This document shows, one piece after another, positions 37 through 60,933 of a stretch of 64,000 nucleotides of DNA (the first letter of the stretch is position 1; every line of letters begins with the position of its first letter). Both the position numbers and the translations under genes were made by a program. A model generated the notes under the pieces. The model did no database searches. It was not told the DNA's origin and saw only the letters and a program-made list of their open reading frames with translations. Location: assembly GCF_965284355.1 (NCBI RefSeq), contig NZ_OZ260078.1:1199111-1263110 (forward strand), written 5' to 3'. Source of the stretch: Phenylobacterium sp. (GTDB taxonomy: Bacteria > Pseudomonadota > Alphaproteobacteria > Caulobacterales > Caulobacteraceae).

Positions 37-849
37 TCAAACCAGCGCGGAGGGCTTGATCCCCAATTCTTGCAGCATCGGCGCGGCGTGGTCGATGCGG
101 CCCGTCATGGTTTTGGGGTCGCCGACAGAGAGCTGGTAGACGGCCTCGGCGATGTACTCGATGGGCGTGACCCGGTCCTTGGTGGCCTCGGTGATCAGGC
201 CGTGGACGGCGACCCCGGGGGTGTCGACCAGCCCGGGCGAGATCACGTTGACGGCGACGTTGTCGTCGTAGACCTCGGAGGCCAGGCCCGTGGAGAAGCG
301 CTCTAGCGCGGCCTTGCACATGCCGTAGATCGTGCCGCCGCCGCGCCGGTTGTAGGGCTGCTGCGGATGGATGGCGGCGCCGGACGAGATGTTGGTGATC
401 CAGCCCTGTTTGCGCTCGCGCATCGACGGCAGGACCAGCTGGGTCAGGTGGAGCGGCGCCCACACCTGGACCTCGAACATCAGGTCGAAGCGCTTCTTGG
501 GGAAGGTCTCCACCGGGATGAAGAAGGTGACCGCGGCGTCGTTGACCAGGATGTCGACGGGTCCGTAGGCGGCGACCGTCTCCTCGACCAGGCGGATGCG
601 GTCGGCCTCGATCGAGAGGTCGGCCTTGACCGCCGTCGCCTCGCCGCCGGCCGCCCGGATTCGCTCGACCGTCGCGGCCAGCGTGCCCGGAAGCTTGCTC
701 TCGCCGGTGTCGGCAGTGCGGGCCGAGGCCACGACCTTGGCGCCCTCCATGGCCAGGCGCACGGCGATGGCCTCGCCGATGCCGCGGCTGGCGCCCGTGA
801 CCAGCGCCACCTTGCCCTTCAGAGTTCCGTTCGGATTCACCCCGGCCAT
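37..849 (-). CDS. SDR-family short-chain dehydrogenase/reductase
   Basis: 270-aa ORF with Rossmann motif VTGASRGIGEAI, NDAA and YxxxK (YGMCK). GGGAGGA Shine-Dalgarno lies just upstream of the ATG at 849. Confidence 0.85.
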   Translation of the reverse strand: MAGVNPNGTLKGKVALVTGASRGIGEAIAVRLAMEGAKVVASARTADTGESKLPGTLAATVERIRAAGGEATAVKADLSIEADRIRLVEETVAAYGPVDILVNDAAVTFFIPVETFPKKRFDLMFEVQVWAPLHLTQLVLPSMRERKQGWITNISSGAAIHPQQPYNRRGGGTIYGMCKAALERFSTGLASEVYDDNVAVNVISPGLVDTPGVAVHGLITEATKDRVTPIEYIAEAVYQLSVGDPKTMTGRIDHAAPMLQELGIKPSALV

Positions 850-925
850 CGTCGTCCTCCCATACCGCGTTTTCTGATTGGCGGCAGGGTCGCGCGGCTG
901 ACGCGCGGGCGCAAGGGGTCGGCGC

Positions 926-1162
926 TCAGTCCTGTTCGCGGACGGTGAGGCGGCCGACCGTCAGTTCATCCACGTCCAGGCGGCGCTGATGGACCCGGCG
1001 CACCGTCAGCCGACCGATCGCGAGGCGACCGATGGCCAGCGCGCCGACGGCGATGGCGCCGAACGCCAGCGCGCCCAGCAGGGCCGAGCCCAGGGCCGCG
1101 GTTCCCACTGCGGTGGCGCCGGTGGCCGAGGCCGGGACGGCTGACGACTTGGGTTCCGACAT
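926..1162 (-). CDS. Small hydrophobic protein of unknown function, coupled to the end of cckA
   Basis: 78-aa ORF with GC-rich third codon positions. Its ATG directly abuts the cckA stop (TAGATG at 1160-1165). It has an Ala/Gly-rich hydrophobic segment and repeated IGRL/VGRLTV motifs. Confidence 0.5.
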   Translation of the reverse strand: MSEPKSSAVPASATGATAVGTAALGSALLGALAFGAIAVGALAIGRLAIGRLTVRRVHQRRLDVDELTVGRLTVREQD

Positions 1163-3280
1163 CTAGGCGGCCTTCTGCAGTTCCAGCTTCACCCGCTCGG
1201 CCAGGGTCTTGATGTCGATGGGCTTGGGCAGGAACGAGACGTTCTTCTCACCCTCCAGCAGGTCGGAGAACTCGCTCTCGGCATAGCCGGAGATGAACAT
1301 CACCGGCGCCGCACCCAGGTACTGGCGGGCCTGCTTCAACAGGTCGGGGCCCTGCATGCCGGGCATGACCACGTCCGAGATCATCAGGTCGATCTCGCCG
1401 GCATGAGTCTCGGCGTATTCCAGGGCCTCTTCTCCGCTGGCCGCCTCGATCACCTCGTAGCCACGAGCGCGCAGCAGCTTGGCGGCGACGCCGCGCACGG
1501 CGTCCTCGTCCTCGACGAACAGGATCCGGCCGGCGCCCGACAGGTCGCGGGCGGCGGGGCGCTTGGGCGTGACCGGCTCGGCCGCCGGAGCCGCGGCCTC
1601 CTGGGCGGGCGCCACGTGGACCGGCAGGAAGATGCGGAAGGCGGCGCCCTGCCCCGGCTTGGAGTCGACGGCGATCCAGCCGTCCGACTGCTTGACGATG
1701 CCGTAGACGGTGGCCAGCCCCAGGCCCGTCCCCTCGCCCACCGCCTTGGTGGTGAAGAAGGGCTCGAAGATCTTTTCCTTCACGTCCGGCGGGATGCCGG
1801 GGCCGTCGTCGCTGACGTCGATCAGCGCGTGGTCGCCCTGGGCCGTCGGATAGCCCAGGCTGCGGGCCTCTTCCTGGGTGACCCGGGCGGTGCGGATGTT
1901 GATCACGCCGCCGCCGTGCGTGCGGATCGCGTCGCGGGCGTTGACCACCAGGTTCATCACAGCGGTGTCCAGCTGCCCGCGGTCGGCGCGGACGTGCGGC
2001 AGGTTGCGGCCATAGTCGGTGACCAGCTTGATGTCCTCGTGCAGCAGGCGGCGGAGCAGCACCTCGGACTCCGAGATCATCTCGCCCACGTCCAGAATCT
2101 CGCGCTGGACCGTCTGCTTGCGCGAGAACGCCAGCAGCTTGCGCACCAGGTCGGCGGCCCGCATCGACGTCTGCTTGATCTCGTTCAGGCCCTCGTAGCT
2201 GGGGTCGCCCACCGGGTGGCGGGTGGACAGCACGTCCAGCTGCATGAGGATGGCGGTCAGCAGGTTGTTGAAGTCGTGGGCGACACCCCCGGCCAGCTGG
2301 CCGATGGCCTGCATCTTCTGGCTCTGGGACAGCTGCAGCTCGACCTGCTTCTGCTCGGAGACATCGACCAGGTAGGCCACCCAGCGGTCGCCGGCCTGGG
2401 TCAGGTAGAGGTGGGCGATGCGGGCCGGGTCATGGGCCAGGCGCACCTCGAGCGGGGCGTGGCCGTCGCGGTGATCGGCCAGCCGCAGGCCGGCGTCGAG
2501 GCGGCTGGCGGGCTCGATAAGCGCGCCGAACACCTGTCCCGCCTCCCCCCCCTTGGCGAGGGCGGCCAGCGCGGGGTTGGCCTCGATGATGCGCGCCTCG
2601 AAGGGGTCGTCGCCCTCCAGCAGCGCCGCGCCGAACGGCGAGGCCGCAGCGAACGCGTCCAGCACCTTGGGCGGCGGGGCCTTGGCGGTGGCCACGGCGT
2701 TCAGCACTTCCAGGGCCGACGAAGGCAAGGCCAGAGGACCGCCGCCGCGGCCGGCCAGCCGCACCAGGAAGCGGCGGGGACCGATGGGCGATACCATGGC
2801 CTCGCGCTCCTGGCCGCCGGCCTTGATGGGCGCGCGGCCCAGTTCGCCGCGGCGGGCGGCGGCCAGCGCGCCGAACAGGCTGGAGGCGGCCGCGCCGCTC
2901 TTGGGTAGGCGCGGGTGCGGGCCCATCGTCTCGCGCCACGCGGCGTTGGTGGTGAGCAGCCGCCCGTCGGGGGCGACCACGGCGGCGGGCTCTTCCAGCG
3001 CGGCCAGGAACGCCTCGGCGCCGGCCTCGGCCTCCTGCGGCGCCTCGGGCGAGCCGCGCAGCACGAACAGGCCGATGCAGGCGACGCCGGCCAGCCCGAT
3101 CAGCAGCAGCGAGCTGCCCAGCGCTTCCAACGGCGCATTCAGCAGCGGCGCGCCCGCAAAAATCACGGCCAACAGGAAAAACAGCACCGCGAACGCGGTG
3201 AAGACGTCGGCCTTACGGGTCTTGGTCGGCGGCTCGGCCATGTGAGGGCTCAGCGCTTCCGGCGATTCGATGCTCTGCAT
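1163..3280 (-). CDS. cckA: Hybrid sensor histidine kinase/response regulator, probable cell-cycle kinase CckA
   Basis: 705 aa with two N-terminal TM segments, a PAS-like region, H-box [14 protein letters not shown], an HATPase region ([13 protein letters not shown]) and a C-terminal receiver (ILFVEDE...[11 protein letters not shown]). It lies directly downstream of fliQ-fliR-flhB, as I recall for C. crescentus cckA. Confidence 0.65.
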
Positions 3281-4424: not shown

Positions 4425-5182
4425 GTGCCGAGGAACGTCCCCAGCAGGCCGCGGTACCGGTCGATCCAGATGATGCCGATCGCGCCCAGGCTAAGGGCGA
4501 AGACCGAGAGGCCCAGAAGGACGATCAGCGGGGTGACGGCGAAGAACACCTGAAACTGCGGCATCACGCGGCCGACGAGACCGGCGGCGACGTTGAAGAC
4601 CAGCGAGAAAACGATCACGGGCGCCGAGAGTTGGAGCCCGAGCGCGAACGAGCTTCCGAGGGTCTGGACGGCGAGTTGCCCGGCGTCGGCGACCGGAATG
4701 TCGCGGCCGAACGGGAACAGGTCGAACGACTTGACGATGGCGGCGATGAACAGGTGGTCCAGGTCGGTGGCGAAGATCAGCACGATGCCGATGAGGCCCA
4801 GGAACGTGCCGAGCGTGGTGGACGGCGCGGCCTGCATCGGGTTGGCCGTCTGGGCGAACGACAGGGTGGTCTGAAGCGACACGATCTCGCCCGCGGTGGC
4901 CAGCGAGGTCATGAAGAGGCGCAGGATCGACCCGATCAGCAGACCGATGATGACCTCCCGGATCACCGCCAGCCCGAAGTCGCCGGCGCTGGTCGCCAGC
5001 ACAGGCACCTTGGCCGCCAGCAGGGGGAACAGCAGCAGCGACAGGGCCAGCGCGAACGACAGGCGGATACGCGCCGGAATGAACGTCTCGCCCAGGCCGG
5101 GCATGAGCATGACGATGGCGCCCAGCCGCGCGAAGATGAGGCCGGCGGCGTAGACCTGTTGGGCCGTGGCGTAGGATTCCAC
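4421..5182 (-). CDS. fliR: Flagellar export apparatus protein FliR
   Basis: 253-aa polytopic membrane protein lying between fliQ and flhB. Confidence 0.9.
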   Translation of the reverse strand: MESYATAQQVYAAGLIFARLGAIVMLMPGLGETFIPARIRLSFALALSLLLFPLLAAKVPVLATSAGDFGLAVIREVIIGLLIGSILRLFMTSLATAGEIVSLQTTLSFAQTANPMQAAPSTTLGTFLGLIGIVLIFATDLDHLFIAAIVKSFDLFPFGRDIPVADAGQLAVQTLGSSFALGLQLSAPVIVFSLVFNVAAGLVGRVMPQFQVFFAVTPLIVLLGLSVFALSLGAIGIIWIDRYRGLLGTFLGT

Positions 5183-5196
5183 TGCGCCCTGCCCGC

Positions 5197-5460
5197 CTAC
5201 ATGCCCGCGATGCGGGCCGCGATGTTGCGCATGAAGCCGCTCATCAGGGCGCCCATCAGCGGCAGGAAGACCAGCAGCGAGACGAAGATGGCCACGATCT
5301 TGGGGGCATAGACCAGGGTCTGCTCCTGGATCTGGGTCAGGGCCTGCAGCAGGCCGATGCCAACGCCCACGATCAGGCCCACCAGCAGCACCGGCGCGCA
5401 GAGCTGAATGGTCAGCCAGATGGCGTCTCGCCCGACGTCCAGAACCTCGGCGCCGCTCAT
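5197..5460 (-). CDS. fliQ: Flagellar export apparatus protein FliQ
   Basis: Conserved core LLQALTQIQEQTLVYAPKI. I place the start at the internal MSGAEVLDV (ATG 5460, GAGG Shine-Dalgarno upstream). The longer ORF start at 5526 lies inside a TTAACCAT promoter motif. Confidence 0.88.
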   Translation of the reverse strand: MSGAEVLDVGRDAIWLTIQLCAPVLLVGLIVGVGIGLLQALTQIQEQTLVYAPKIVAIFVSLLVFLPLMGALMSGFMRNIAARIAGM

Positions 5461-5524
5461 CGAAAACCTCATGCGGAAGACAGGGCCCGACGGTCGCCCC
5501 GCCGGCCGCCCAATCTCGCCGGTC

Positions 5525-5557
5525 ATGGTTAACGAAAGGCTAGAGAGGGTTAACCAT
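5525..5557. promoter_or_regulatory. Inverted pair of TTAACCAT (CtrA-type 8-mer) motifs upstream of fliQ
   Basis: ATGGTTAAC-N15-GTTAACCAT, located 65-97 nt upstream of the proposed fliQ ATG. Confidence 0.4.
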
Positions 5558-5696
5558 CCTTCCCCTTCACGAGGAGGGTGGCGCGCGCAGCGAGACGGGG
5601 GGAGAGGCGATCTTCCCCAACGCTCGTGGCCCGACCTCTACGCCCTCACCCGGATCGCCTCCGGCGATCTGTCGCGCCCCATCAAGGGAGGGAAAG
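5558..5696. repeat. REP-like structured intergenic element, family A: inverted pair of roughly 50-bp modules
   Basis: The right module (5643-5696) aligns with the modules at 23677-23727 and 23771-23822 and contains the hairpin GATCGCC-tcc-GGCGATC. The left module (5558-5607) is a diverged copy. The element overlaps the last codons and stop of the ABC permease gene. Confidence 0.6.
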
Positions 5697-7223
5697 CGCC
5701 CGCGCCGCCTCGGCCGGGGTCACCTTCCCCGTGTCGCGGTCGACGCTGTAGTTGGCCGCGCGCATCGCCTCGACGGAGACGGCGCCGACCAAGGGCTGCA
5801 GGGCGTCCAGCAGTCGCCGGTCCTGGGCCCGCTTCGGCGAAACAAGAATGACCGCGTCGTACGGGGGGATGGCGCCTCGGGGATCGCTCAGAACCACCAG
5901 CTTGTCGGCGGCGATGCGGCCGTCGGACGAGAAGGCGCTGATGACGTCAGCCTCGCCCGAGCCCAGGGCCCGGTACATGAAGGTCGGCTGGAACGATCGC
6001 TCGGCCTTGAAGGTCAGGTCGTAGGCCGCATCGACCGCCTTCCACTCCGGCCGCGACAGGAACTCGACGTCCGTCCCCAGGGTGAGGTTGCGCGCCTCGC
6101 GGGCCAGGTCGTCCAGGGAAGTCACGCCCAGAGCCTTGGCGCGGTCGGCGCGCATGGCGAAGGCGTAGGCATTCTCGAAGCCCAGCGAGCCCAGGACGAC
6201 CACGCCGTCACGCTTTTTCAGCTCGGCGGTCAGTCCGGCCAGGATGGCGGCGCGGCCGGGGTTGTCCGTCCGGCCCAGCACGCTGGTCCAAAGTGTGCCG
6301 GTGTAGTCGACGTAGACGTCGATCTCGCCGGCGGACAGGGCGCGGTAGGCGACACTGGAGCCCAGGTTCTCCTTGCGCTCGACCTGGGCGCCGGTGCGTT
6401 CCAGGCGCTCGGCCATCAGGGCCGCCAGGATGTACTGCTCGGAGAAGTTCTTGGCGCCGACCACATAGGCCGCCGGCCGACCGAAGCTGGCCAGCGGAAG
6501 CATGGCCGCCGCCGCGCCGACCAGCAGCGCGGCCAAACCGGCCAGGACGAGGCTGCGGCGCCGGGTGCGCAGGCCCGTCTCGACGAGCCCCAGCAACTGG
6601 TCGGTCGTCATGGCCAGGATCGCCGCCGCGGCGCAACCGAACAGCACCGAGACCCAGTTCTCGGTCTGCAGGCCCGCGAAGATGTAGTTGCCCAGGCTGG
6701 TCTGGCCGACGGGGGTGGAGAGCGTGGCGGCGCCGATGGTCCAGACGGCGGCGGTGCGCACGCCGGCCATGATCACCGGCGCGGCCAGGGGCAGCTCGAC
6801 CTGGATCAGCTTCTGGCGGCCGGTCATGCCCACGCCGTCGGCGGCCTCCGAGATCGCGGGATCGACGCCCGTGATGCCGGTCACTCCGTTCCGCAGGATG
6901 GGCAGGATCGAATAGAGCGTCAGCGCCAGCAGCGACGGCAGGAAGCCCAGGGCCGAGAACCCACGCCCCAGCACCGCCTCCGACACGGCCGAGAGCGCGA
7001 GCAGGAGCGGATAGAACAGCGCCAGCAGGGCCAGGCTGGGGATCGTCTGGATCAGGCTGGCCAGCGCCAGAACGGGCCAGCGCAGGCGCGGACTGCGGCT
7101 GGCCGCCACCGCCAGCGGCAGGCTGATCGCCAGCCCCAGGGCCAGCGCGCTGACGCTGAGCAGGACGTGCCAGCCCAGGTACTCGGGCAGCAGTTCGAAG
7201 GCGGCGGCCAGTTGCGGGCTCAT
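5682..7223 (-). CDS. ABC transporter fused permease/substrate-binding protein (osmoprotectant/glycine-betaine-choline type)
   Basis: 513 aa with an N-terminal polytopic permease half and a C-terminal periplasmic-binding-like half. ATGA overlap with the upstream ATPase gene. Confidence 0.8.
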   Translation of the reverse strand: MSPQLAAAFELLPEYLGWHVLLSVSALALGLAISLPLAVAASRSPRLRWPVLALASLIQTIPSLALLALFYPLLLALSAVSEAVLGRGFSALGFLPSLLALTLYSILPILRNGVTGITGVDPAISEAADGVGMTGRQKLIQVELPLAAPVIMAGVRTAAVWTIGAATLSTPVGQTSLGNYIFAGLQTENWVSVLFGCAAAAILAMTTDQLLGLVETGLRTRRRSLVLAGLAALLVGAAAAMLPLASFGRPAAYVVGAKNFSEQYILAALMAERLERTGAQVERKENLGSSVAYRALSAGEIDVYVDYTGTLWTSVLGRTDNPGRAAILAGLTAELKKRDGVVVLGSLGFENAYAFAMRADRAKALGVTSLDDLAREARNLTLGTDVEFLSRPEWKAVDAAYDLTFKAERSFQPTFMYRALGSGEADVISAFSSDGRIAADKLVVLSDPRGAIPPYDAVILVSPKRAQDRRLLDALQPLVGAVSVEAMRAANYSVDRDTGKVTPAEAARALSLP

Positions 7224-7987
7224 GCGCCCAGCCTCTCGCGCAGCCGCTCGGCCTGGCGCTTGGGCGCTTCCAGCAGGGCCAGCACGTGGGGGTCTTTGGA
7301 TGTCGCCAGCAGCTCGGCCGGCGCGCCGTCGGCCAGGATGCGCCCGCCCGCCAGCACCACGATGCGGTCGGCCAGCAGCACCGCCTCGGCCATGTCATGA
7401 GTGACCATCAGCGTCGTCAGGCCCAGGCGTTCATGCAGGGCGCGGTAGTCGGCGCCCAGGGCGTCGCGGGTGACCGGGTCCAGGGCGCCGAAGGGCTCGT
7501 CCATCAGCATCAGGCGGGGCTCGGCGGCGAGCGCCCGGGCCACGCCCACGCGCTGGCGCTGGCCGCCCGAGAGCGCGGCCGGCGCGCGCCTGGCCACCTC
7601 CGCCGGCAGTGCGACGAGCTCCAGCAGCTCGGCCACGCGGGCGGTCATTCTGGACGCGTCCCAGCCCAACAGCCTGGGCGTGATGGCAATGTTCTCGGCG
7701 ACCGTCAGGTGCGGGAACAGGCCCACCTCCTGAAAGACGTATCCGATGCGCCGGCGCAGCAGATGAGGCTCGGCCGCGGCCACGTCTTCTCCGGCCACGC
7801 TGACCCGCCCCGCGTCGGGGGCGATGAGGCCGTTGACGGTCTTGAGCAGCGTGGTCTTGCCAGAACCCGACCCGCCCACCAGCGCCACGAACTGTCCGGC
7901 CGCGACCGCGAGATCGACGCCATCGAGGGCGGCGTGGGCGCCGTAGCGCTTGGACACGCCTGTGAGTTCGATCAGCGGATCGGTCAT
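7220..7987 (-). CDS. ABC transporter ATP-binding protein
   Basis: Walker A GGSGSGKTT, signature LSGGQRQR and Walker B LMLMDEP. Start chosen at MTDPLIELTGV (ATG 7987). Confidence 0.88.
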   Translation of the reverse strand: MTDPLIELTGVSKRYGAHAALDGVDLAVAAGQFVALVGGSGSGKTTLLKTVNGLIAPDAGRVSVAGEDVAAAEPHLLRRRIGYVFQEVGLFPHLTVAENIAITPRLLGWDASRMTARVAELLELVALPAEVARRAPAALSGGQRQRVGVARALAAEPRLMLMDEPFGALDPVTRDALGADYRALHERLGLTTLMVTHDMAEAVLLADRIVVLAGGRILADGAPAELLATSKDPHVLALLEAPKRQAERLRERLGA

Positions 7988-52875: not shown

Positions 52876-52961
52876 GCTGAGGCTGCGGAACCGCAGCGCT
52901 TGACCGGCATTTTCGCTCTCGGGGTCGATTGGCCGGACTGGCCGTCACATGCCGAGGAGCA

Positions 52962-54458
52962 ATGGCTATTACTGCGGAAGAACCCGGTGACGCCCGGACA
53001 GGCATCGCCGGGCTCGACGACGTTCTGGGCGGCGGCCTCAAGCGCAACCGCGTGTTCCTCTTCGAGGGCGCGCCCGGCACGGGCAAGACCACGGCGGCCC
53101 TCAGCTACCTGATGGCCGGCGCGGCGGCGGGCGAGAAGGTGCTTTACGTCACCCTGTCCGAGACCGAGGCCGAGCTGCGCGACACCGCCGCCTCGCACGG
53201 CTGGAGCCTGGAGGGCGTCGAGGTCTTCGAGCTGGTTCCGCCCGAGAACCTGCTGGACGAGCACCAGCAGCAGAGCCTGCTCTATTCGTCCGACCTGGAG
53301 CTGGGCGAGACGACCCGGATGATCCTGGACGCCGTCGAGCGATCCGAGCCCAGCCGCGTGGTGATCGACAGTCTGTCGGAAATCCGGCTGCTCGCGCAGG
53401 GGTCGCTGCGGTATCGCCGCCAGGTCCTGGCGCTGAAGCACTACTTCGCCAAGCACGGCGCGACCGTGGTGCTGCTGGACGACCTGACGGCCGAGATTTC
53501 GGACAAGACGGTGCACAGCGTGGCCCACGGCGTCGTGCGTCTCGAGGAGCTGGCGCCCGAATACGGGGCCGAGCGCCGGCGCGTGCGGGTCACGAAGTAC
53601 CGGGGCCGCAAGTTCCGGGGCGGCTATCACGACTTCACGATCAAGACCGGCGGCCTGGAAATCTACCCCCGTCTGGTCTCGTCCGAGCACAAGACCGACT
53701 TCGACCGCACGCCGCTGACCAGTGGCGTCCCGGGCCTGGACGAGCTGCTGGGCGGCGGACTGGATCGCGGGTCGAGCTGCCTGATCCTGGGCCCGGCCGG
53801 CACCGGCAAGTCTCTGATGGCGCTGTACTTCGCAATGTCGGCGATCCAGCGCGGCGAGAAGGCGGCGCTGTTCGTCTTCGACGAAGAGCTGGGTCTGCTG
53901 TTCGAGCGCGCCAAGGGCCTCGGATTCAACCTGAAACCATTGCACGACGAGGGCAGTCTGGTGGTGCAGCAGGTCGACGCCGCCGAGCTGTCGCCCGGCG
54001 AGTTCACCGCCAACGTGCGCCATTGCGTCAGGGAGCGCGGCATACGAACCGTCATCATCGACAGCCTGAACGGCTATCAGGCGGCGATGCCGGAAGAGCA
54101 CTTCCTGCTGCTGCATATGCACGAGCTGCTGCAGTTCCTGAACCGGCAAGGCGCGACCACCTTCCTGACCGTCGCCCAGCACGGGCTGGTGGGCGAGACG
54201 AAGGCGCCGGTGGATGTCACCTACCTGGCCGACACCGTGCTGCTGCTCCGCTACTTCGAGGCCGCGGGCGAGGTGCGTCGGGCGGTGTCGGTGATCAAGA
54301 AGCGTTCGGGACAGCACGAGAAGACGATCCGCGAGTACGAGATCGACCAGAGCGGCCTGAACGTCGGCCCGCCGCTGACCGAGTTCCAGGGCGTGCTGCG
54401 CGGCGTGCCGAACTTCGTGGGCCCGGGCTCCGGCCTGCTGGGCGAACGGTCCGCATGA
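52962..54458 (+). CDS. KaiC-like double-domain RecA-superfamily ATPase
   Basis: Two Walker A motifs (GAPGTGKTT and GPAGTGKSL) in tandem KaiC/RadA-like domains, with N-terminus GIAGLDDVLGGGL. ATG at 52962 has a GAGGAG Shine-Dalgarno. Confidence 0.85.
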   Translation: MAITAEEPGDARTGIAGLDDVLGGGLKRNRVFLFEGAPGTGKTTAALSYLMAGAAAGEKVLYVTLSETEAELRDTAASHGWSLEGVEVFELVPPENLLDEHQQQSLLYSSDLELGETTRMILDAVERSEPSRVVIDSLSEIRLLAQGSLRYRRQVLALKHYFAKHGATVVLLDDLTAEISDKTVHSVAHGVVRLEELAPEYGAERRRVRVTKYRGRKFRGGYHDFTIKTGGLEIYPRLVSSEHKTDFDRTPLTSGVPGLDELLGGGLDRGSSCLILGPAGTGKSLMALYFAMSAIQRGEKAALFVFDEELGLLFERAKGLGFNLKPLHDEGSLVVQQVDAAELSPGEFTANVRHCVRERGIRTVIIDSLNGYQAAMPEEHFLLLHMHELLQFLNRQGATTFLTVAQHGLVGETKAPVDVTYLADTVLLLRYFEAAGEVRRAVSVIKKRSGQHEKTIREYEIDQSGLNVGPPLTEFQGVLRGVPNFVGPGSGLLGERSA

Positions 54459-56611: not shown

Positions 56612-57910
56612 ATGACCCGGGCGCGCGTGCTGGCCGGACTTTCGACGCTGATTTTCGCGGCATCCGGCGCGGGCTCGGCCCTGGCGCAGGACGCTCCGCC
56701 CACGGCTGATCCGGCCAACACCGCCTGGATCCTGGCGGCGACCGCGTTGGTGCTGTTCATGACCCTGCCGGGATTGGCCCTGTTCTACGCGGGCCTGGTG
56801 CGGGCCAAGAACGCGCTCAGCGTGATGATGCATTGCGTGGCGATCGCCTGCCTGGCCTCGGTGCTGTGGCTGCTGGGCGGCTACAGCCTGGCCTTCTCGG
56901 GCTCGAACCCCTTCATCGGCGATCTCGCCAAGTTCGGCCTGCCCGGCGGCCGCGACGCCGTCAGCGGCACGCTGCCCGAGACGGTGTTCTTCGCCTTCCA
57001 GATGACCTTCGCGATCATCACCCCCGGGCTGATCGTCGGCGCCTACGTCGAGCGGATCAAGTTCGGGGCGGTGCTGATGTTCTCGGGCCTCTGGCTGCTG
57101 CTGGTCTATGCGCCGGTCTGCCACTGGGTATGGGGCGGCGGATGGCTGGCCCAGATGAAGGTCATGGACTACGCGGGCGGCCTGGTGGTCCATGCGACGG
57201 CCGGCGTCTCGTCGCTGGTGGCGGTGGCGATGCTGGGGCCGCGCGATGGCTTCCCGGGCGACCTGCACCCGCCGCACAACCCCGGCATGACGATGATGGG
57301 CGCCGGCATGCTTTGGGTGGGCTGGTACGGCTTCAACGCGGGCAGCGCGCTGGCGGCCGACGCGGCGGCGGGCTCGGCCCTGGTGGCGACCCACCTGTCG
57401 GCGGCGACCGCGGGCCTCGTCTGGGCGCTGATCGAGCGCGTGAAGTTCGGGCGCACCAGCATGATCGGCGTGGTCACCGGCGTCGTGGCCGGCCTCGCCA
57501 CCGTAACCCCGGCCTCGGGCTTCGTGGGTCCGGTCGGCGGCGTCGTCCTGGGCGCGCTGGGCAGCCTGATCTGCTTCCACTGCGTGGGTCCGGTGAAGTC
57601 CAAGCTGAGGCTGGACGACAGCCTGGACGTCTTCGCCGTCCACGGCGTGGGCGGCATCCTGGGCACCCTGGGCGTCGCCGTGCTGGCCTCGGCCCAGCTG
57701 GGCGGCGTGGGCTACGCCGAGGGCATGACCATGGGCAGCCAGGCCGGCGTGCAGGCGCTGGGCGTGCTCACCGTCTGCGCCTGGTCGGCGGCGGCCTCGG
57801 CCGTAATCCTGCTCATCTGCAAGGTCACCGTGGGCCTGCGCGCCACCCCGGAAGCGATCGAAGACGGGCTCGACCTCTCGACCCATGGCGAGCGGGCGTA
57901 TCAGAACTAG
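56612..57910 (+). CDS. amtB: Ammonium transporter
   Basis: 432 aa with a signal peptide and conserved AGLVRAKN, DYAGGLVVH, GWYGFNAGSA and VHGVGGILGTL. Confidence 0.92.
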   Translation: MTRARVLAGLSTLIFAASGAGSALAQDAPPTADPANTAWILAATALVLFMTLPGLALFYAGLVRAKNALSVMMHCVAIACLASVLWLLGGYSLAFSGSNPFIGDLAKFGLPGGRDAVSGTLPETVFFAFQMTFAIITPGLIVGAYVERIKFGAVLMFSGLWLLLVYAPVCHWVWGGGWLAQMKVMDYAGGLVVHATAGVSSLVAVAMLGPRDGFPGDLHPPHNPGMTMMGAGMLWVGWYGFNAGSALAADAAAGSALVATHLSAATAGLVWALIERVKFGRTSMIGVVTGVVAGLATVTPASGFVGPVGGVVLGALGSLICFHCVGPVKSKLRLDDSLDVFAVHGVGGILGTLGVAVLASAQLGGVGYAEGMTMGSQAGVQALGVLTVCAWSAAASAVILLICKVTVGLRATPEAIEDGLDLSTHGERAYQN

Positions 57911-57952
57911 TGGGTTGAGCTGCGGGCGATTCCGCCCGCTTGATCGACGCAG

Positions 57953-58720
57953 ATGATCCAGGTTCCCACGGCGCTCTGGGCGCACACCGCCTTCGATCTT
58001 GCCGCCTGGGGTGCGGGCCTGGGCTTGAGCGTCGTGCTCCACCGCTGGCGGCTGCGGGGGTTGACCGAGGCCGTCGCCGGCAAAGTGGGCGGCGGCTACT
58101 TCGCGGCGTTGGCGGCGGGCGCCATTCCCGGCGCCTGGCTGGCCGGATCGCTGAACTCGCTGCAGAACGCCCAACCCGCCCTGTCGCATAGCGTGGTGGG
58201 CGCTCTTGTCGGCGCGATCGTGGGCGTCGAGGTCTACAAGGCCCTGCGCGGCGTGAAGGGCTCAACCGGTGGGATGTTCGTCGGGCCGTTCGCGCTGGGC
58301 GTTGTGATCGGGCGCTGGGGCTGCCTGTTCGCGGGCAAACCCGACGGGACCTATGGCGCGCCTACCGCCCTGCCCTGGGCCGTCGACCTGGGTGACGGGA
58401 TCGGACGCCATCCCGTGCAGGCCTACGAGAGCCTGGCCATGGCTCTGTTCCTGGCCGTCTACCTCGAGGGACTGGCGCGCAGACGGCCCTGGGCGATGCG
58501 GCGGGGGTTCTACGCGCTGTGCCTCTGGTACGGGGCCACCCGCTTCGGTTGGGAGTTCCTCAAACCCTATCCATCGTTGATTGGACCGCTTAACCTCTTC
58601 CACGTGCTGTGCGGGGGGCTGGTCGCTTATGGATGGGTCTACTATCGAGCCAGCCTCGTCCGCGATCGCGCGGAAGGCCGCGCCCTACCTGTTCCTGGGC
58701 CAGACCACGAGCCTGTGTGA
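57953..58720 (+). CDS. Prolipoprotein-diacylglyceryl-transferase (Lgt)-family membrane protein, paralog-like
   Basis: 255-aa polytopic protein with Lgt-like blocks IGRWGCLFAGKPDGTYGAPTALPWAV and RHPVQAYESLAMALFL. It is shorter than housekeeping Lgt. Confidence 0.7.
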   Translation: MIQVPTALWAHTAFDLAAWGAGLGLSVVLHRWRLRGLTEAVAGKVGGGYFAALAAGAIPGAWLAGSLNSLQNAQPALSHSVVGALVGAIVGVEVYKALRGVKGSTGGMFVGPFALGVVIGRWGCLFAGKPDGTYGAPTALPWAVDLGDGIGRHPVQAYESLAMALFLAVYLEGLARRRPWAMRRGFYALCLWYGATRFGWEFLKPYPSLIGPLNLFHVLCGGLVAYGWVYYRASLVRDRAEGRALPVPGPDHEPV

Positions 58721-60065
58721 GACCTGCCTGGCGCTGGTCCCGGCCAAGGTGATCGGCGAGGACGGCAAGGTCTTCTACCTCAAGCGCTGTCGCGAGCACG
58801 GGGTGCAGAAGACCCTGATCGCCGACGACATCGCCTATTGGAAATCCCAGCGCGACTGGCTGAAGCCCGGCGACCGGCCGCTCTCAGTGGCCACGCGCAC
58901 CGAACACGGATGTCCCTACGACTGCGGTCTCTGCCCCGACCACGAGCAGCACTCGTGCCTGGCGATCGTGGAGATCAACGAGGCCTGCAACCTGTCGTGC
59001 CCCGTCTGCTTCGCCGACTCATCGGTGAAGCGCGAGGCCCATCGGCCGCTGGCCGAGATCGAGCGGATGCTGGACGTGATCGTCGAGGCCGAGGGCGAGC
59101 CTGATCTTGTCCAGCTCTCGGGCGGCGAGCCCACCATCCATCCGCAGTTCTGGGAGATTCTGGACGCGGCCAAGGCGCGGCCGATCCGGCATCTGATGAT
59201 CAACACCAACGGCCTGCGGATCGCGCGCGAGCCGGGCTTCGCCGAGCGGCTGGCCGCCTACATGCCGGGCTTCGAGGTCTATCTGCAGTTCGACAGCCTG
59301 AAACGCGATGCGCTGATCGAATTGCGCGGCGCCGACCTCACCAAGGTGCGGGTCGAGGCGCTGGAGGCGCTGGAGCGGGCCAACATCTCCACAACCCTCG
59401 TGGTGACGCTGAAAAAGGGCGTCAACGACGACGAGATCGCCGACATCGTCCGCTTCGCGCTGAACTGGCGCTGCGTGCGCGGGGTGACATTCCAGCCGAT
59501 CCAGGACGCCGGGCGCAACGACGGATTTGACGCTAAGCAGCATCGGATGGTGTTGACCGAGGTGCGTCGGAAAATCGCCGAGGCCGGCGTCTTCGGCCTG
59601 GACGACCTGATCCCCCTGCCCTGCAACCCGGACCAGATCTGCATCGGCTATGGCCTCAGGAACGGGCGGGAGGTGCAGCCGGTGACGGCGATGCTGCCGC
59701 GCGAGCTGTTCGTGGCCGCGGCGCCCAACACGGTGACCTTCGAGAGCTATCCCGAGCTGCGCGAGAAGGTGTTCGAACTGCTGTCGCTCTCGACCGCGCA
59801 GGGCAATACGTCGGACAAGCTCGCCAACCTGCTCTGCTGCCTGCCGGAGGCGGCGGTGCCGCAGGAGGTGGCCTACGAGAACACCTTCCGGGTGGTGGTG
59901 AGCCAGTTCCTGGACCGCTTCAACTTCGACTTGGGGACCGTCAAGCGCAGCTGCGTGCACTTCGTGCAGCCCGACGGGCGGATCATCCCCTTCGACACTT
60001 ACAACACGTTCTACCGGCCGGGCGCGGCAGGGGCCGAGGCGTTGAAGCGGGGGCAAGGTCTATGA
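58629..60065 (+). CDS. Cys-rich radical SAM enzyme of the MJ0619/tetraether-lipid-synthase-like type (family assignment tentative)
   Basis: It has an N-terminal zinc-ribbon-like CETC...CREH, then GCPYDCGLCPDHEQHSC immediately followed by the radical SAM cluster CNLSCPVC and SGGEPT. Its start lies inside the 3' end of the Lgt-like gene. Confidence 0.78.
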   Translation: MDGSTIEPASSAIARKAAPYLFLGQTTSLCETCLALVPAKVIGEDGKVFYLKRCREHGVQKTLIADDIAYWKSQRDWLKPGDRPLSVATRTEHGCPYDCGLCPDHEQHSCLAIVEINEACNLSCPVCFADSSVKREAHRPLAEIERMLDVIVEAEGEPDLVQLSGGEPTIHPQFWEILDAAKARPIRHLMINTNGLRIAREPGFAERLAAYMPGFEVYLQFDSLKRDALIELRGADLTKVRVEALEALERANISTTLVVTLKKGVNDDEIADIVRFALNWRCVRGVTFQPIQDAGRNDGFDAKQHRMVLTEVRRKIAEAGVFGLDDLIPLPCNPDQICIGYGLRNGREVQPVTAMLPRELFVAAAPNTVTFESYPELREKVFELLSLSTAQGNTSDKLANLLCCLPEAAVPQEVAYENTFRVVVSQFLDRFNFDLGTVKRSCVHFVQPDGRIIPFDTYNTFYRPGAAGAEALKRGQGL

Positions 60066-60376
60066 GCGAGCGGCGGGCGGTCCAACGGTTCTTCGGCGCG
60101 GCGCTGATCGGCGTGGGCGTACTGATGATGCTGCTGTGCGGCGGCTGCGGCGCGCTGTTCTCCATCGGCTTCTTCATCAGTGGCCTGGCCTCGTCGAACC
60201 ACGAGGACATCAGTATGGTCATCATGCCGATCCTGCTGGGCGGCGTGCCGGCCGCCGTCGGACTGGGCCTGTTCATCGTCGGGCGGGATTTGCGGCGACC
60301 GACCAACAGGGCCGCACCACTACCACCATCGGTCGACGACAACGACGGCGGCGACGACGGCGGCGTCCACCCGTAG
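60062..60376 (+). CDS. Small membrane protein with an acidic, Pro-rich tail
   Basis: 104 aa with about three hydrophobic segments. ATGA overlap with the radical SAM stop. Confidence 0.5.
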   Translation: MSERRAVQRFFGAALIGVGVLMMLLCGGCGALFSIGFFISGLASSNHEDISMVIMPILLGGVPAAVGLGLFIVGRDLRRPTNRAAPLPPSVDDNDGGDDGGVHP

Positions 60377-60441
60377 AGTGCCACGCCGCCGTCGCTCGAG
60401 AACCGCGGGTGTTCTGGCCAACTGAGATCGGTATCTAGCTT

Positions 60442-60933
60442 CTACAGAGAGCTCAGGATCTCGGCGACGCAGCTATCGGCGTCGCGTCCGGCAGTGTCGA
60501 TCACTAGGCGTTCGCGCGTCCAGGGGCGATAGTCGCGCGCGGCGACCTCTTCCCAGGTCGGCGGCGTCAGGCCGGGCACGTCAGGCGCACGGGACTCGAC
60601 CCGCCGGCGGTGCTCCGCAGCGTCGCTGCAGATGATCTCGATCTCCACGAACTCGGCCGCCGCTCGTCGCGCGGCGTCGCGCCAGGCGTCGCGGGTCTCC
60701 ATCCAGGGGTTCACGCTGTCGCCGACCACGTCCAGGCCCAGGCGCAGGTTGTCGACGGCCAGGGCGCAGGCGGCGCGGTAGCCTTCGTCGGTGATCGGGG
60801 TCGCCTCGTCGGCGATGGCCGTCTCAATGGTGTCGATGCGCAGCCAGACGGCCCGGAGCTGGCGGGCCAGCTCGCGGGCTATGGTCGATTTCCCGGTTCC
60901 CGGCAGGCCTGCGAAGACGACCAGCAGGGGCAA
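60442..60933 (-). CDS. P-loop kinase-like AAA-family ATPase
   Basis: 163 aa with Walker A GLPGTGKST at the N-terminus. The TTG start is 4 nt after the dehydrogenase stop. Confidence 0.65.
   Translation of the reverse strand: MPLLVVFAGLPGTGKSTIARELARQLRAVWLRIDTIETAIADEATPITDEGYRAACALAVDNLRLGLDVVGDSVNPWMETRDAWRDAARRAAAEFVEIEIICSDAAEHRRRVESRAPDVPGLTPPTWEEVAARDYRPWTRERLVIDTAGRDADSCVAEILSSL

Follow-up and report, generated by a model that had tools for sequence, protein, structure and literature searches.

A bacterial gene module of an Lgt-family paralog, a tetraether synthase-like radical SAM enzyme and small cysteine-motif membrane proteins

Gene arrangement at the locus

Three genes are packed on the same strand in the window (the whole 64-kb stretch of Phenylobacterium DNA that was analysed); they encode an Lgt-family paralog, a radical SAM enzyme and a small membrane protein (Table 1). 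The radical SAM gene begins within the 3' end of the Lgt-like gene, with an overlap of 92 nt, and its stop codon overlaps the ATG of the small ORF as ATGA (60062-60065). This layout is as the original prediction, made from the letters of the DNA, had described it, and the motifs that it picked out are likewise present: the Lgt blocks GRWGCLFAG...LPWAV and RHPVQAYE in the ORF at 57953-58720, and an N-terminal CxxC...CxxH ribbon, the string GCPYDCGLCPDHEQHSC and CNLSCPVC in the radical SAM protein. From the ATG at 58629 to the first conserved cysteine of the latter there is no ATG, GTG or TTG. A database protein of 478 residues (P0001) is 100% identical to the radical SAM enzyme of the window; a lookup of the exact protein gave no record, and the 90%-identical P0012 was used in its place.

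Table 1. Features of the three-gene locus and of its upstream spacer (positions are those of the window)
Feature	Position	Strand	Basis
GC-rich hairpin, GCGGGC-GATTCC-GCCCGC, in the 42-nt spacer between amtB and the Lgt-like gene	57922..57939	+	Sequence and RNA fold
Lgt-family paralog, 255 aa, integral membrane protein	57953..58720	+	Pfam LGT, hhalign, 27-sequence alignment A2
Signature G120-R-W-G-C124 of the Lgt-like protein	58310..58324	+	Alignment A2 and hhalign
Radical SAM enzyme, 478 aa, GDGT-MAS/Tes four-domain architecture	58629..60065	+	HMM, phmmer, alignments, Foldseek
CNLSCPVC, CX3CX2C radical SAM [4Fe-4S] motif	58986..59009	+	Sequence; invariant in alignments A1 and A4
Small hairpin membrane protein, 104 aa, "type 1" Cys-motif family	60062..60376	+	ATGA overlap, family HMM
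G27-G28-C29 (G-x-C) of the small protein	60140..60148	+	Alignment A5, 56 type-1 matches

Upstream, the amtB gene ends at 57910. It had been noted as a neighbour that might be co-transcribed with the trio. The linkage is not conserved: it is confined to certain Phenylobacterium genomes (L170), and a 90%-identical relative (L001) lacks it. The spacer hairpin, at first described as weak, is stronger than that, with the segment that contains it (57905-57960) folding at -24.2 kcal/mol (z = -2.9). It has no U tract and the terminator scan makes no call there; whether it is a partial terminator or an RNA-stability element is uncertain. Promoter and terminator scans of 57700-60700 gave nothing relevant, and an Fnr/FixK box (TTGA-N6-TCAA) was found neither in the window nor in L165. 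A tblastn search with E. coli Lgt detected no canonical lgt in the 64-kb window, a result that holds for the window and not for the rest of the genome.

Linkage of the genes across phyla

Conservation of the gene pair is observed whichever gene is used as the starting point. A genome scan found a same-strand Lgt-like gene, mostly overlapping, at 73 of 81 radical SAM loci, and a contig edge is present in seven of the eight loci that lack one; at a Fischerella locus (L039) the radical SAM and small-protein genes occur without an adjacent Lgt-like gene. In the reverse scan, of metagenomes, all 58 Lgt-like loci carry the radical SAM gene. The two genes are also joined in natural LGT::ribbon::Radical_SAM fusions, which make up at least 57 protein clusters; a model of such a fusion has a pTM of 0.63, its inter-domain geometry being only moderately confident. 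The pairing is near-obligate both ways, and the adjacency proposed from the one locus is kept in both scan directions and in the fusions. Carriers in the genome scan belong to the Alpha-, Beta- and Gammaproteobacteria, Bacillota and Bacteroidota, with further carriers among the Acidobacteriota, Planctomycetota, Gemmatimonadota and others. More than 150 independent loci, drawn from many phyla, show this gene order, usually with the stop of one gene overlapping the start of the next, an arrangement far beyond chance.

All-vs-all BLAST clustering of the neighbours revealed no other genes conserved across the loci. Neighbour clusters 2-5 proved not to be real genes; they are shadow ORFs on other frames of both enzymes. 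Some synteny is clade-local: BipA/TypA lies downstream of the module, a Crp-family regulator precedes it in Bradyrhizobium, and a B12-radical SAM gene does so in Hyphomicrobiales. A search of the literature on TrsS, COG1964, IPR034474/PF23545 and Lgt paralogs gave no description of the pairing, in line with the prediction of an undescribed system.

The Lgt-like and radical SAM proteins

By its profile scores and alignments, the product of the first gene is an Lgt-fold paralog, not the housekeeping Lgt. It matches Pfam LGT (PF01790) over residues 21-230 with 61.3 bits against a gathering threshold of 24.9, and it reaches only 15-21 bits where the lgt equivalog models require 119-428 (20.7 vs 428 for NF000775, 17.4 vs 334 for NF000778 and 15.1 vs 118.9 for TIGR00544). 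No PDB Lgt was found by phmmer at E<=1; hhalign aligned the protein to E. coli Lgt with a probability of 98.5% (E 1.4e-15). The fold was compared on the fusion protein P0280, which over its Lgt domain shares 37% identity with the window protein, and Foldseek matched its AF2 model to 5AZB with E 4.6e-8 and a TMt of 0.55 over 286 columns.

Residues R143, E202, Y235, R239 and E243 of E. coli Lgt form a diacylglycerol-binding catalytic pocket, and the active site faces the periplasm (Mao et al. 2016, PMC4728403). The paralog keeps the diacylglycerol/phosphatidylglycerol-pocket residues as R121 (=R143), E159 (=E202), Y193 (=Y235) and R197 (=R239), with E201 aligned to E243 and K204 at the position of R246; among the 27 paralogs of alignment A2, R121 and R197 are invariant, and conservation of E159 and Y193 is 90% or higher. 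The kept catalytic residues argue that the paralog is probably an enzyme. It does not have the Lgt signature G142-RLGNFINGELWG-154 with N146, nor the H103-GGL motif. At the N146 position lies C124, a cysteine invariant across the paralog family, with the catalytic arginine retained. Since N146 belongs to a conserved polar network of Lgt, transferase activity would not be guaranteed. H103, the proposed site of lipobox-peptide binding in Lgt (Mao et al. 2016, PMC4728403), is replaced by Val or Ile, which would fit a different acceptor, and a segment of the head domain is deleted. The description of a specialised paralog, first offered on the strength of a few blocks, is borne out by these three departures: the invariant cysteine, the lost histidine and the truncated head.

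Compared overall with Lgt (E. coli, PDB 5AZB/5AZC; PF01790, TIGR00544), the paralog has the multi-helix membrane fold, the RHPxQLYE block and the GGL of HGGL in common. It differs in length (255 vs 291 aa, the periplasmic head domain being mostly deleted), in its own invariant E93, K96 and DFGDG, and in being linked or fused to a radical SAM enzyme, as at every locus of the reverse scan. Its presumed acceptor is the G-x-C of a hairpin mini-protein, whereas that of Lgt is [LVI][ASTVI][GAS]C at the end of a signal peptide. These scores also bear on the reading in which the trio are coincidental neighbours, namely a housekeeping lgt, an unrelated cofactor enzyme and a spurious small ORF. JGI does label many homologs of the radical SAM enzyme "7,8-dihydro-6-hydroxymethylpterin dimethyltransferase", but for MJ0619 the structure of GDGT-MAS overturned the pterin label (Lloyd et al. 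2022, PMC9433317). With lgt equivalog scores far below the cut-offs, linkage in both directions and across phyla, natural fusions, and a small ORF that the census described below places in specific conserved families, coincidence is effectively refuted and is given next to no probability.

The second protein, judged by profile and structure matches, is Tes-like, not Tes. It matches the archaeal GDGT-MAS (7TOL) with E 1.7e-63 by phmmer, at 26% identity, and Foldseek aligned the model of the window enzyme to 7TOL over 488 columns (E 1.3e-37, TM 0.79/0.77); the next Foldseek match, SkfB, covers the core only (TM 0.38/0.47). The four-domain architecture of Tes/GDGT-MAS (M. jannaschii MJ0619, PDB 7TOL/7TOM) is thus held in common over the full length, together with its rubredoxin-type site, N-terminal auxiliary cluster motif and RS motif, the metal-ligand motifs of GDGT-MAS being those given by Lloyd et al. 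(2022, PMC9433317). In the window enzyme these are, respectively, C30, C33, C54 and H57 (CX2CX20CX2H), C95, C99 and C102 with H105/H108 (CX3CX2C plus His), and C120, C124 and C127. The C-terminal domain has its own invariant set of cysteines (C332, C403, C404 and C442), several of the C-terminal cysteines of Tes differ, and the "FCTYN" of Tes reads "FDTYN". When phmmer aligns the enzyme to 7TOL (the numbering offset of +20 being set by C9 = chain C29), Met439 is replaced by Ser, Tyr459 by Phe and Cys438 by Val, and the Tyr459 column is variable across the bacterial family. Both Met439 and Tyr459 show strict conservation across 1000 archaeal homologs (Lloyd et al. 2022, PMC9433317). The original assignment to the Tes type therefore stands for the full-length match, and not for Tes identity, given the missed cut-off and the two lost residues.

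The top family matches are the Pfam HMPTM ribbon (Zn_ribbon_HMPTM) and the NCBIfam Tes and TrsS models. Neither NCBIfam cut-off is reached: the Tes model NF045702 gives 272 bits against 450, mainly over residues 25-319, and TrsS (NF045646), the best NCBIfam match and above Tes, gives 306 against 490. Residues 25-460 align end to end with positions 2-431 of the 441 in the TrsS model, so that the C-terminal domain is of the same type; unlike TrsS, a radical SAM (seleno)protein, the window enzyme has no selenocysteine. One of ten distant relatives tested passes as TrsS (P0243, 502 bits, 31% identical to the window enzyme). TrsS is said to have been treated as a radical SAM (seleno)protein family by Haft and Tolstoy in 2025.

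That the enzyme is a true Tes orthologue, making membrane-spanning tetraether (brGDGT) or diabolic-acid lipids in bacteria, is suggested by Tes being both the closest solved structure and one of the top NCBIfam matches, yet it is very unlikely: the Tes score lies well under its cut-off and below the TrsS score, Met439 and Tyr459 are Ser and Phe, the C-terminal cluster ligands differ, and the taxonomic spread does not track the known producers of such lipids. The family is bacterial and often found in aerobes, and we know of no report of coupling to an Lgt paralog for archaeal Tes. Coupling of lipid tails in bacteria has also been proposed for the radical SAM enzyme Mss (Thermotoga/Thermoanaerobacter), whose authors call its relation to Tes only remote (Sahonero-Canavesi 2022); compared by description, Mss comes from anaerobes, and neither an Lgt partner nor a Cys mini-protein has been reported for it.

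Small cysteine-motif proteins and a proposed lipid anchor

The third gene had been described as a small membrane partner, and it does encode a membrane protein, but not a generic subunit; it belongs to substrate-like Cys-motif families, and the small Cys-protein as a third component of the module is new here. The window protein matches its family HMM with E 1.1e-23 and is the sole match in the 64-kb window. No Pfam or NCBIfam family was found for it, with only sub-threshold noise (DUF308, holin-like). A profile search with the family brought in 531 relatives, all annotated as hypothetical, and the four that were looked up all lie directly 3' of the LGT and radical SAM genes. A first scan for small ORFs, which took the first start codon near the radical SAM stop and at least 60 aa, gave partners in only about 39-47 loci, and it overlooked many others whose ORFs are lengthened by in-frame starts further upstream. 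The partner counts are accordingly taken from a census with family HMMs, which replaced it: small proteins follow the radical SAM gene in 99 of 124 loci, without exception on its strand and no more than 3 kb away; in about 20% of loci none was detected, and the HMMs had no matches elsewhere in 1.5 Mb.

Alignment A5 has only three invariant positions, M1, G27 and C29. The cysteine column is kept in 55 of 56 type-1 proteins and in all members of two further families (17/17 and 11/11), with Gly at -2 in 54/56 (type 1) and 17/17, and the lipobox-like contexts across the families include LLPG[LI]C, SLGICG and LLNAACFG. The genes often stand in tandem, in 2-6 copies, and such arrays are typical of substrates, not of enzyme subunits. 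The window protein is predicted to be an N-in/C-in hairpin, and the charge distribution places the cysteine near the outer end of the helix in N-in and N-out families alike, a predicted location that matches the periplasm-facing active site of Lgt. The small proteins are candidate Cys acceptor substrates.

Tandem small ORFs with an invariant cysteine next to a multi-cluster radical SAM enzyme, whose core fold is similar to that of SkfB and SuiB, also recall RiPP systems, in which the small proteins would be precursors, the radical SAM enzyme would form a sacti- or ranthipeptide-type thioether at the cysteine, and the Lgt paralog would serve as scaffold or exporter. This is improbable. The enzyme has no SPASM or twitch domain, peptide-maturase NCBIfam models give 29-50 bits against cut-offs of 265-650, and the likeness to maturases is of the core only, whereas the GDGT-MAS match is full-length; the alternative of a cofactor or peptide maturase, raised with the original prediction, is thus not what phmmer and Foldseek found. 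Only G-x-C is kept in the small proteins, with no second conserved crosslink partner, the cysteine is predicted at the outer membrane side, away from a cytoplasmic radical SAM enzyme, and the conserved residues of the Lgt paralog point to the latter as an enzyme rather than a scaffold. A PADLOC search for anti-phage defence families returned only a generic radical SAM-core similarity to pVip (47 bits), and no match for the other two proteins.

There is about an even chance, in our estimate, that the three genes specify one membrane-bound machine that joins lipidation of small proteins to radical remodelling of lipid. The Lgt paralog would be an integral membrane transferase that, from its conserved residues, may bind glycerophospholipid in the diacylglycerol pocket of Lgt, its acceptor-recognition region having been rebuilt. 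On its cytoplasmic C-terminus would be seated the radical SAM enzyme, in many bacteria fused to it, which by analogy would bring the lipid-tail-modifying architecture of the archaeal tetraether synthase. The hairpin proteins, single at this locus and in tandem sets of up to six at others, would be the most likely substrates, with an acceptor cysteine in a non-canonical lipobox-like L-L-[PSA]-G-[LIG]-C close to where a transmembrane helix ends on the outer side. The paralog would move a diacylglyceryl-type lipid from phospholipid to this cysteine, and the radical SAM enzyme would then take hydrogen from an unactivated carbon of the hydrocarbon tail, to form a C-C bond or, by way of its C-terminal cluster, a C-S bond. 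This would yield a lipid anchor whose tails are crosslinked, or which is remodelled in some other way. We infer the lipidation of the cysteine, the identity of the lipid and the bond made by the radical SAM enzyme. As the cysteine is predicted on the membrane side opposite the cytoplasmic enzyme, the latter could not touch it directly, and it is assumed to act on the lipid tails. The bond may also differ from that made by Tes, because Met439, Tyr459 and several C-terminal cysteines of Tes are not kept. More specifically, though here we are tentative, the paralog may S-link dedicated mini-proteins, through their invariant cysteine, to a glycerolipid, and the Tes-type enzyme may then crosslink the tails of that lipid with one another, with a second lipid from the opposite leaflet or with sulfur; this would be a new protein lipidation, giving a covalent, possibly membrane-spanning, protein-lipid anchor.

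A rather unlikely course is that the pair modifies the tails of bulk phospholipid, by tail-to-tail coupling, macrocyclisation or another modification, with the Lgt paralog extracting and presenting the lipid and the small proteins in a structural, assembly or regulatory role. The whole lipid-binding architecture of GDGT-MAS in the radical SAM enzyme, the retained lipid pocket of the paralog and the fifth or so of loci with no detectable small protein are consistent with it, and bacterial Tes homologs have been speculated to make membrane-spanning lipids (Zeng 2022). An invariant lipobox-like cysteine and arrays of up to six paralogs are, however, hard to explain for a structural subunit, and the Tes hallmarks Met439 and Tyr459 are lost. 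Tes homologs occur in only 3 of 14 iso-diabolic-acid Acidobacteria and in none of the diabolic-acid producers. Many carriers are aerobic soil and marine taxa (Bradyrhizobium, Flavobacteriaceae and Paenibacillus), which to our knowledge are not known to make membrane-spanning lipids.

Hundreds of bacterial Tes homologs occur in organisms without tetraethers, as noted in both of the papers in which tetraether synthase was discovered, and their function was left open there (Zeng 2022; Lloyd et al. 2022, PMC9433317). The locus gives this question a concrete, testable shape, in that one large bacterial branch of the Tes family goes together with a remodelled Lgt and with invariant-cysteine small proteins. 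This radical SAM clade should not be counted as a marker of brGDGT or GDGT producers in environmental genomics. The module suggests that ordinary aerobes of soil and sea may carry out radical lipid chemistry; several of these are cultured strains (Bradyrhizobium, Paenibacillus and Flavobacteriaceae). If lipidation coupled to radical remodelling is borne out, the many bacterial "Tes homologs" would gain their first assigned function, bacteria would for the first time be seen to apply chemistry of the tetraether-synthase type to a lipid bound to protein, and bacterial lipoprotein biology would reach past the canonical Lgt-LspA-Lnt pathway.

Gene order and conservation of the Lgt-like/radical SAM pair

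The coordinates of the three-gene cluster behind amtB (Table) were borne out by ORF listing and by direct reading of the sequence. A spacer of 42 nt separates amtB from the Lgt-like ORF, the end of which overlaps the radical SAM (rSAM) gene by 92 nt in a different frame, and the rSAM stop codon and the start codon of the 104-residue ORF overlap as ATGA. A database protein from a 4.83-Mb contig (P0001) is 100% identical to the rSAM protein of the window. The spacer hairpin, which had been described as weak, is actually stronger (-24.2 kcal/mol, z = -2.9, for the RNA fold of 57905-57960), with a GC stem of 7 bp at its centre. A U tract is absent, and a terminator scan makes no call there; an attenuator, a processing element or a stability element are candidate roles.

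Features of the window and of homologous loci (coordinates of the respective stretch)
Feature	Position	Strand	Length	Remarks
KaiC-like double-domain ATPase	52929-54458	+		Pfam KaiC, 254 bits
ORF overlapping KaiC-like gene	ends 55624	+
amtB	56612-57910			Pfam Ammonium_transp
Lgt-like ORF	57953-58720	+	255 aa
Radical SAM ORF	58629 (ATG)-60065	+	478 aa
Small hydrophobic ORF	60062-60376	+	104 aa
AAA_33/P-loop kinase-like gene	60442-60933	-	163 aa	between trio and Glu/Leu dehydrogenase gene
L039 (Fischerella sp. PCC 9431), rSAM and type-2b mini-protein	5932-7749
L083, membrane protein before fusion gene	4580-6004	+	474 aa	multi-pass; overlaps fusion start
L165-L167 (Bradyrhizobium), Crp/Fnr-family regulator	~2016-2783	+	254 aa	HTH_Crp_2
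L168 (Alphaproteobacteria MAG), B12-binding rSAM protein	846-2474	-		with DUF4070
L169 (Hyphomicrobiales), B12-binding rSAM protein	1041-2735	-		with DUF4070

Co-transcription with amtB, as originally suggested, may still occur by read-through, but the linkage is not conserved: the gene order of the window recurs in another Phenylobacterium (L170), whereas in a relative with 90% identity (L001) the Lgt-like/rSAM pair has KaiC and an HWE histidine kinase ahead of it and GNAT-amtB behind it. The amtB linkage does not belong to the module. The gene that follows KaiC in L001 encodes an HWE_HK histidine-kinase domain, and these two genes immediately precede the Lgt-like/rSAM pair, while in the window GNAT and amtB intervene, which points to a local rearrangement between strains with 90%-identical rSAM proteins. 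For neither of the related Phenylobacterium loci, L001 and L170, do the gene tables show a gene where the window has its AAA_33/P-loop kinase-like gene, so this may be a strain-specific insertion.

When a single genome of each species was scanned, 80 loci shared at least 50% identity with the rSAM of the window; they come from Alpha-, Beta- and Gammaproteobacteria, Bacillota (Paenibacillus, Bacillus, Heyndrickxia, Gottfriedia), Bacteroidota (Flavobacteriaceae, Chitinophagaceae, Lewinella), Acidobacteriota, Planctomycetota, Gemmatimonadota and Cyanobacteria. More than 500 species genomes carry the rSAM, and cultured carriers include Bradyrhizobium with an L165-type locus, Paenibacillus harenae and Olleya sp. 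R77988. A same-strand Lgt-like ORF, which for the most part reaches or overlaps the beginning of the rSAM gene, is present in 73 of 81 rSAM loci, and seven of the eight exceptions have no upstream DNA. The only true absence, and the sole full-flank locus of this kind, is that of Fischerella sp. PCC 9431, where no Lgt-like gene occurs within 6 kb; the paralog may lie elsewhere in that genome or be dispensable in that lineage. In the reverse direction, a metagenome search with the Lgt-like profile found the rSAM gene in all 58 loci that had sufficient DNA downstream of the Lgt-like gene. An exhaustive representative search also turned up LGT::ribbon::Radical_SAM fusion proteins, of which a follow-up search defined at least 57 distinct 90%-identity clusters (named sources are Tepidisphaerales and Verrucomicrobiota). 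P0280 and P0305 are two such proteins. In the model of P0280 (pLDDT 85), the halves match 7TOL, the structure of the archaeal tetraether lipid synthase (TMt 0.75), and 5AZB, that of E. coli Lgt (TMt 0.55, E 4.6e-8). Conserved adjacency of the pair is thus upheld, and linkage in both directions together with the natural fusions makes the Lgt-like and rSAM proteins a single functional unit. The C-terminus of Lgt is cytoplasmic, so the order of the fusions, with Lgt at the N-terminal end and the rSAM at the C-terminal, agrees with a cytoplasmic rSAM carried on the Lgt C-terminus.

All-vs-all clustering of the loci gave no other conserved neighbours. In L168 and L169 the gene of a B12-binding rSAM protein adjoins the Lgt-like gene on its upstream side and diverges from it; the protein could be an accessory enzyme of that clade, or the arrangement could be mere synteny. 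In Bradyrhizobium, the Crp/Fnr-family regulator immediately precedes the module on the same strand, with BipA/TypA downstream; no TTGA-N6-TCAA box is present in L165.

The two enzymes

The Lgt-like protein matches Pfam LGT with 61 bits but reaches just 15-21 bits against the three NCBIfam lgt equivalogs (cut-offs 119-428), in keeping with the predicted specialised paralog, and phmmer matched it to no solved Lgt structure. A profile of 27 paralogs aligns with E. coli Lgt, in a sequence verified against 5AZB, at a probability of 98.5%. With residue roles assigned after Mao et al. 2016 (PMC4728403), the catalytic and diacylglycerol-pocket residues R143, E202, Y235, R239 and E243 are all retained and R246 is replaced by Lys. 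In contrast, N146 of the signature motif has become an invariant Cys (GRxGC), H103 of HGGL, the proposed site of the lipobox peptide, is Val or Ile, and most of the periplasmic head domain is missing. Given the retained pocket and these changes, the protein is an Lgt-fold enzyme, predicted to bind glycerophospholipid, with its acceptor side rebuilt. Housekeeping lgt as the identity of the gene is excluded by the sub-cut-off equivalog scores and the replacement of N146 and H103.

The second protein has Pfam Radical_SAM and HMPTM zinc-ribbon domains, and its best NCBIfam models, TrsS (306 bits, cut-off 490) and Tes (272 bits, cut-off 450), were not passed; among 10 more distant representatives, one was called TrsS and none Tes. 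These scores place it, as judged from sequence, in an uncurated branch of the Tes/TrsS family (IPR034474). The proposed kinship with the archaeal enzyme (GDGT-MAS/Tes) is confirmed over the full length by phmmer against 7TOL (E 1.7e-63) and by comparison of an AF2 model (pLDDT 83, pTM 0.86) with the same structure (E 1.3e-37, TM 0.79/0.77, 488 columns). The runner-up, SkfB, matches in the core alone (TM 0.38), and on the predicted model GDGT-MAS/Tes is the sole full-length structural relative. Every metal-site motif described for GDGT-MAS by Lloyd et al. 2022 (PMC9433317) is also found: a rubredoxin-type site (CX2CX20CX2H; C30, C33, C54, H57), a [4Fe-4S]N site (CX3CX2C plus His; C95, C99, C102, H105/H108) and the RS cluster (CX3CX2C; C120, C124, C127). 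Met439 and Tyr459, strictly conserved in 1000 archaeal Tes homologs in the same study, are however replaced by Ser and Phe, and there are differences at several C-terminal Cys; C332, C403, C404 and C442 are invariant in the alignment and peculiar to this subfamily. The likeness to tetraether synthase therefore holds for architecture and metal motifs but not for the Tes cut-off or these two residues, and a genuine tetraether/brGDGT synthase, which fits the data less well, is very improbable.

Other ribbon-plus-rSAM branches (P0253, P0261, P0269) are fused to dissimilar partners, comprising a class I SAM methyltransferase, a MobA-like nucleotidyltransferase with HD, and DUF5714, which suggests several more uncharacterised systems on a Tes-like scaffold.

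Cysteine-motif mini-proteins

The 104-residue protein belongs to no family in Pfam or NCBIfam. At the majority of loci the rSAM gene has a small hydrophobic ORF behind it, often with the ATGA overlap, and these ORFs fall into several sequence families that BLAST does not link but that have in common one Cys in a small-residue context. Type 1, to which the window protein belongs, is mostly alphaproteobacterial and carries LL[PSA]G[LIG]C[SATG] where the first helix ends (Cys in 55/56, Gly at -2 in 54/56); Met1, G27 and C29 are the only invariants of its alignment. Type 2a (Bacteroidota) has SLG[IV]CG near the C-terminus, with Cys and the -2 Gly each in 17/17, and type 2b (Bacillota, cyanobacteria and others) has LLNAACFG (Cys in 11/11; Gly at -2 not applicable). 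In the type-2 families only 4-15 residues separate the Cys from the C-terminus, so that processing by LspA is not expected. Of 124 loci in which the rSAM gene is complete and followed by 400 nt of DNA or more, 99 are matched by HMMs of the mini-proteins, always on the strand of the rSAM gene and no more than 3 kb away; in the 1.5 Mb searched in six frames, the opposite strand, more distant DNA and the rest of the 64-kb window gave no match. A profile search gave 531 relatives, annotated as hypothetical or weakly as DUF308, and the four examined lie directly downstream of LGT+rSAM in six loci. The originally proposed small membrane partner thus stands as a member of a conserved family, but these are invariant-Cys families rather than a generic partner.

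At L083, a 130-aa ORF downstream of the fusion gene ends ...AFGLCITILKNLH, a type-2-like motif missed by the HMMs, and the 474-aa protein encoded upstream has several Cys-rich stretches and no Pfam match.

Tandem copies are frequent, with four in L001, six in L168 (each with LLLPG[LIA]C) and two in Bradyrhizobium. This multiplicity, together with a lone invariant Cys, reads as the signature of a substrate and not of an enzyme subunit, and makes the mini-proteins candidate substrates. The main alternative, that the pair remodels free membrane lipids with the small proteins as accessories, would draw on the same predicted lipid pocket; set against the substrate signature, it is possible but rather doubtful. 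A RiPP-like direct crosslink of the Cys is a poorer fit to the data, and unlikely.

A candidate lipidation system

The motif resembles the lipobox ([ASTVI][GAS]C) but its residue at -2 is Gly and that at -1 is bulky and aliphatic, which fits the altered HGGL region of the Lgt paralog. From charge distribution, the hairpins are predicted to be N-in/C-in for type 1 and N-out/C-out for type 2a, with the Cys of both near the outer end of a helix, matching the side on which the Lgt active site opens (Mao et al. 2016, PMC4728403). The components in hand are a lipid-pocket-competent Lgt paralog, a physically coupled rSAM of Tes architecture and dedicated Cys-motif mini-proteins. In the preferred reading, the Lgt paralog would transfer a diacylglyceryl-type group onto the mini-protein Cys in the outer leaflet, and the cytoplasmic rSAM would then use radical chemistry to alter the bound lipid in its hydrocarbon tail. 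The bond formed might be a C-C coupling as by Tes or, because the C-terminal cluster site is remodelled, a C-S or other bond. For this picture of mini-protein lipidation and tail remodelling, the chances appear about evenly balanced.

Bacterial Tes homologs with no assigned role have been remarked upon (Zeng 2022, Lloyd 2022, Sahonero-Canavesi 2022 and a 2026 review), and in the searchable literature neither an Lgt paralog nor Cys mini-proteins are connected with them; none of the three components has a curated family model. If the proposed chemistry is true, the module may be categorically new.
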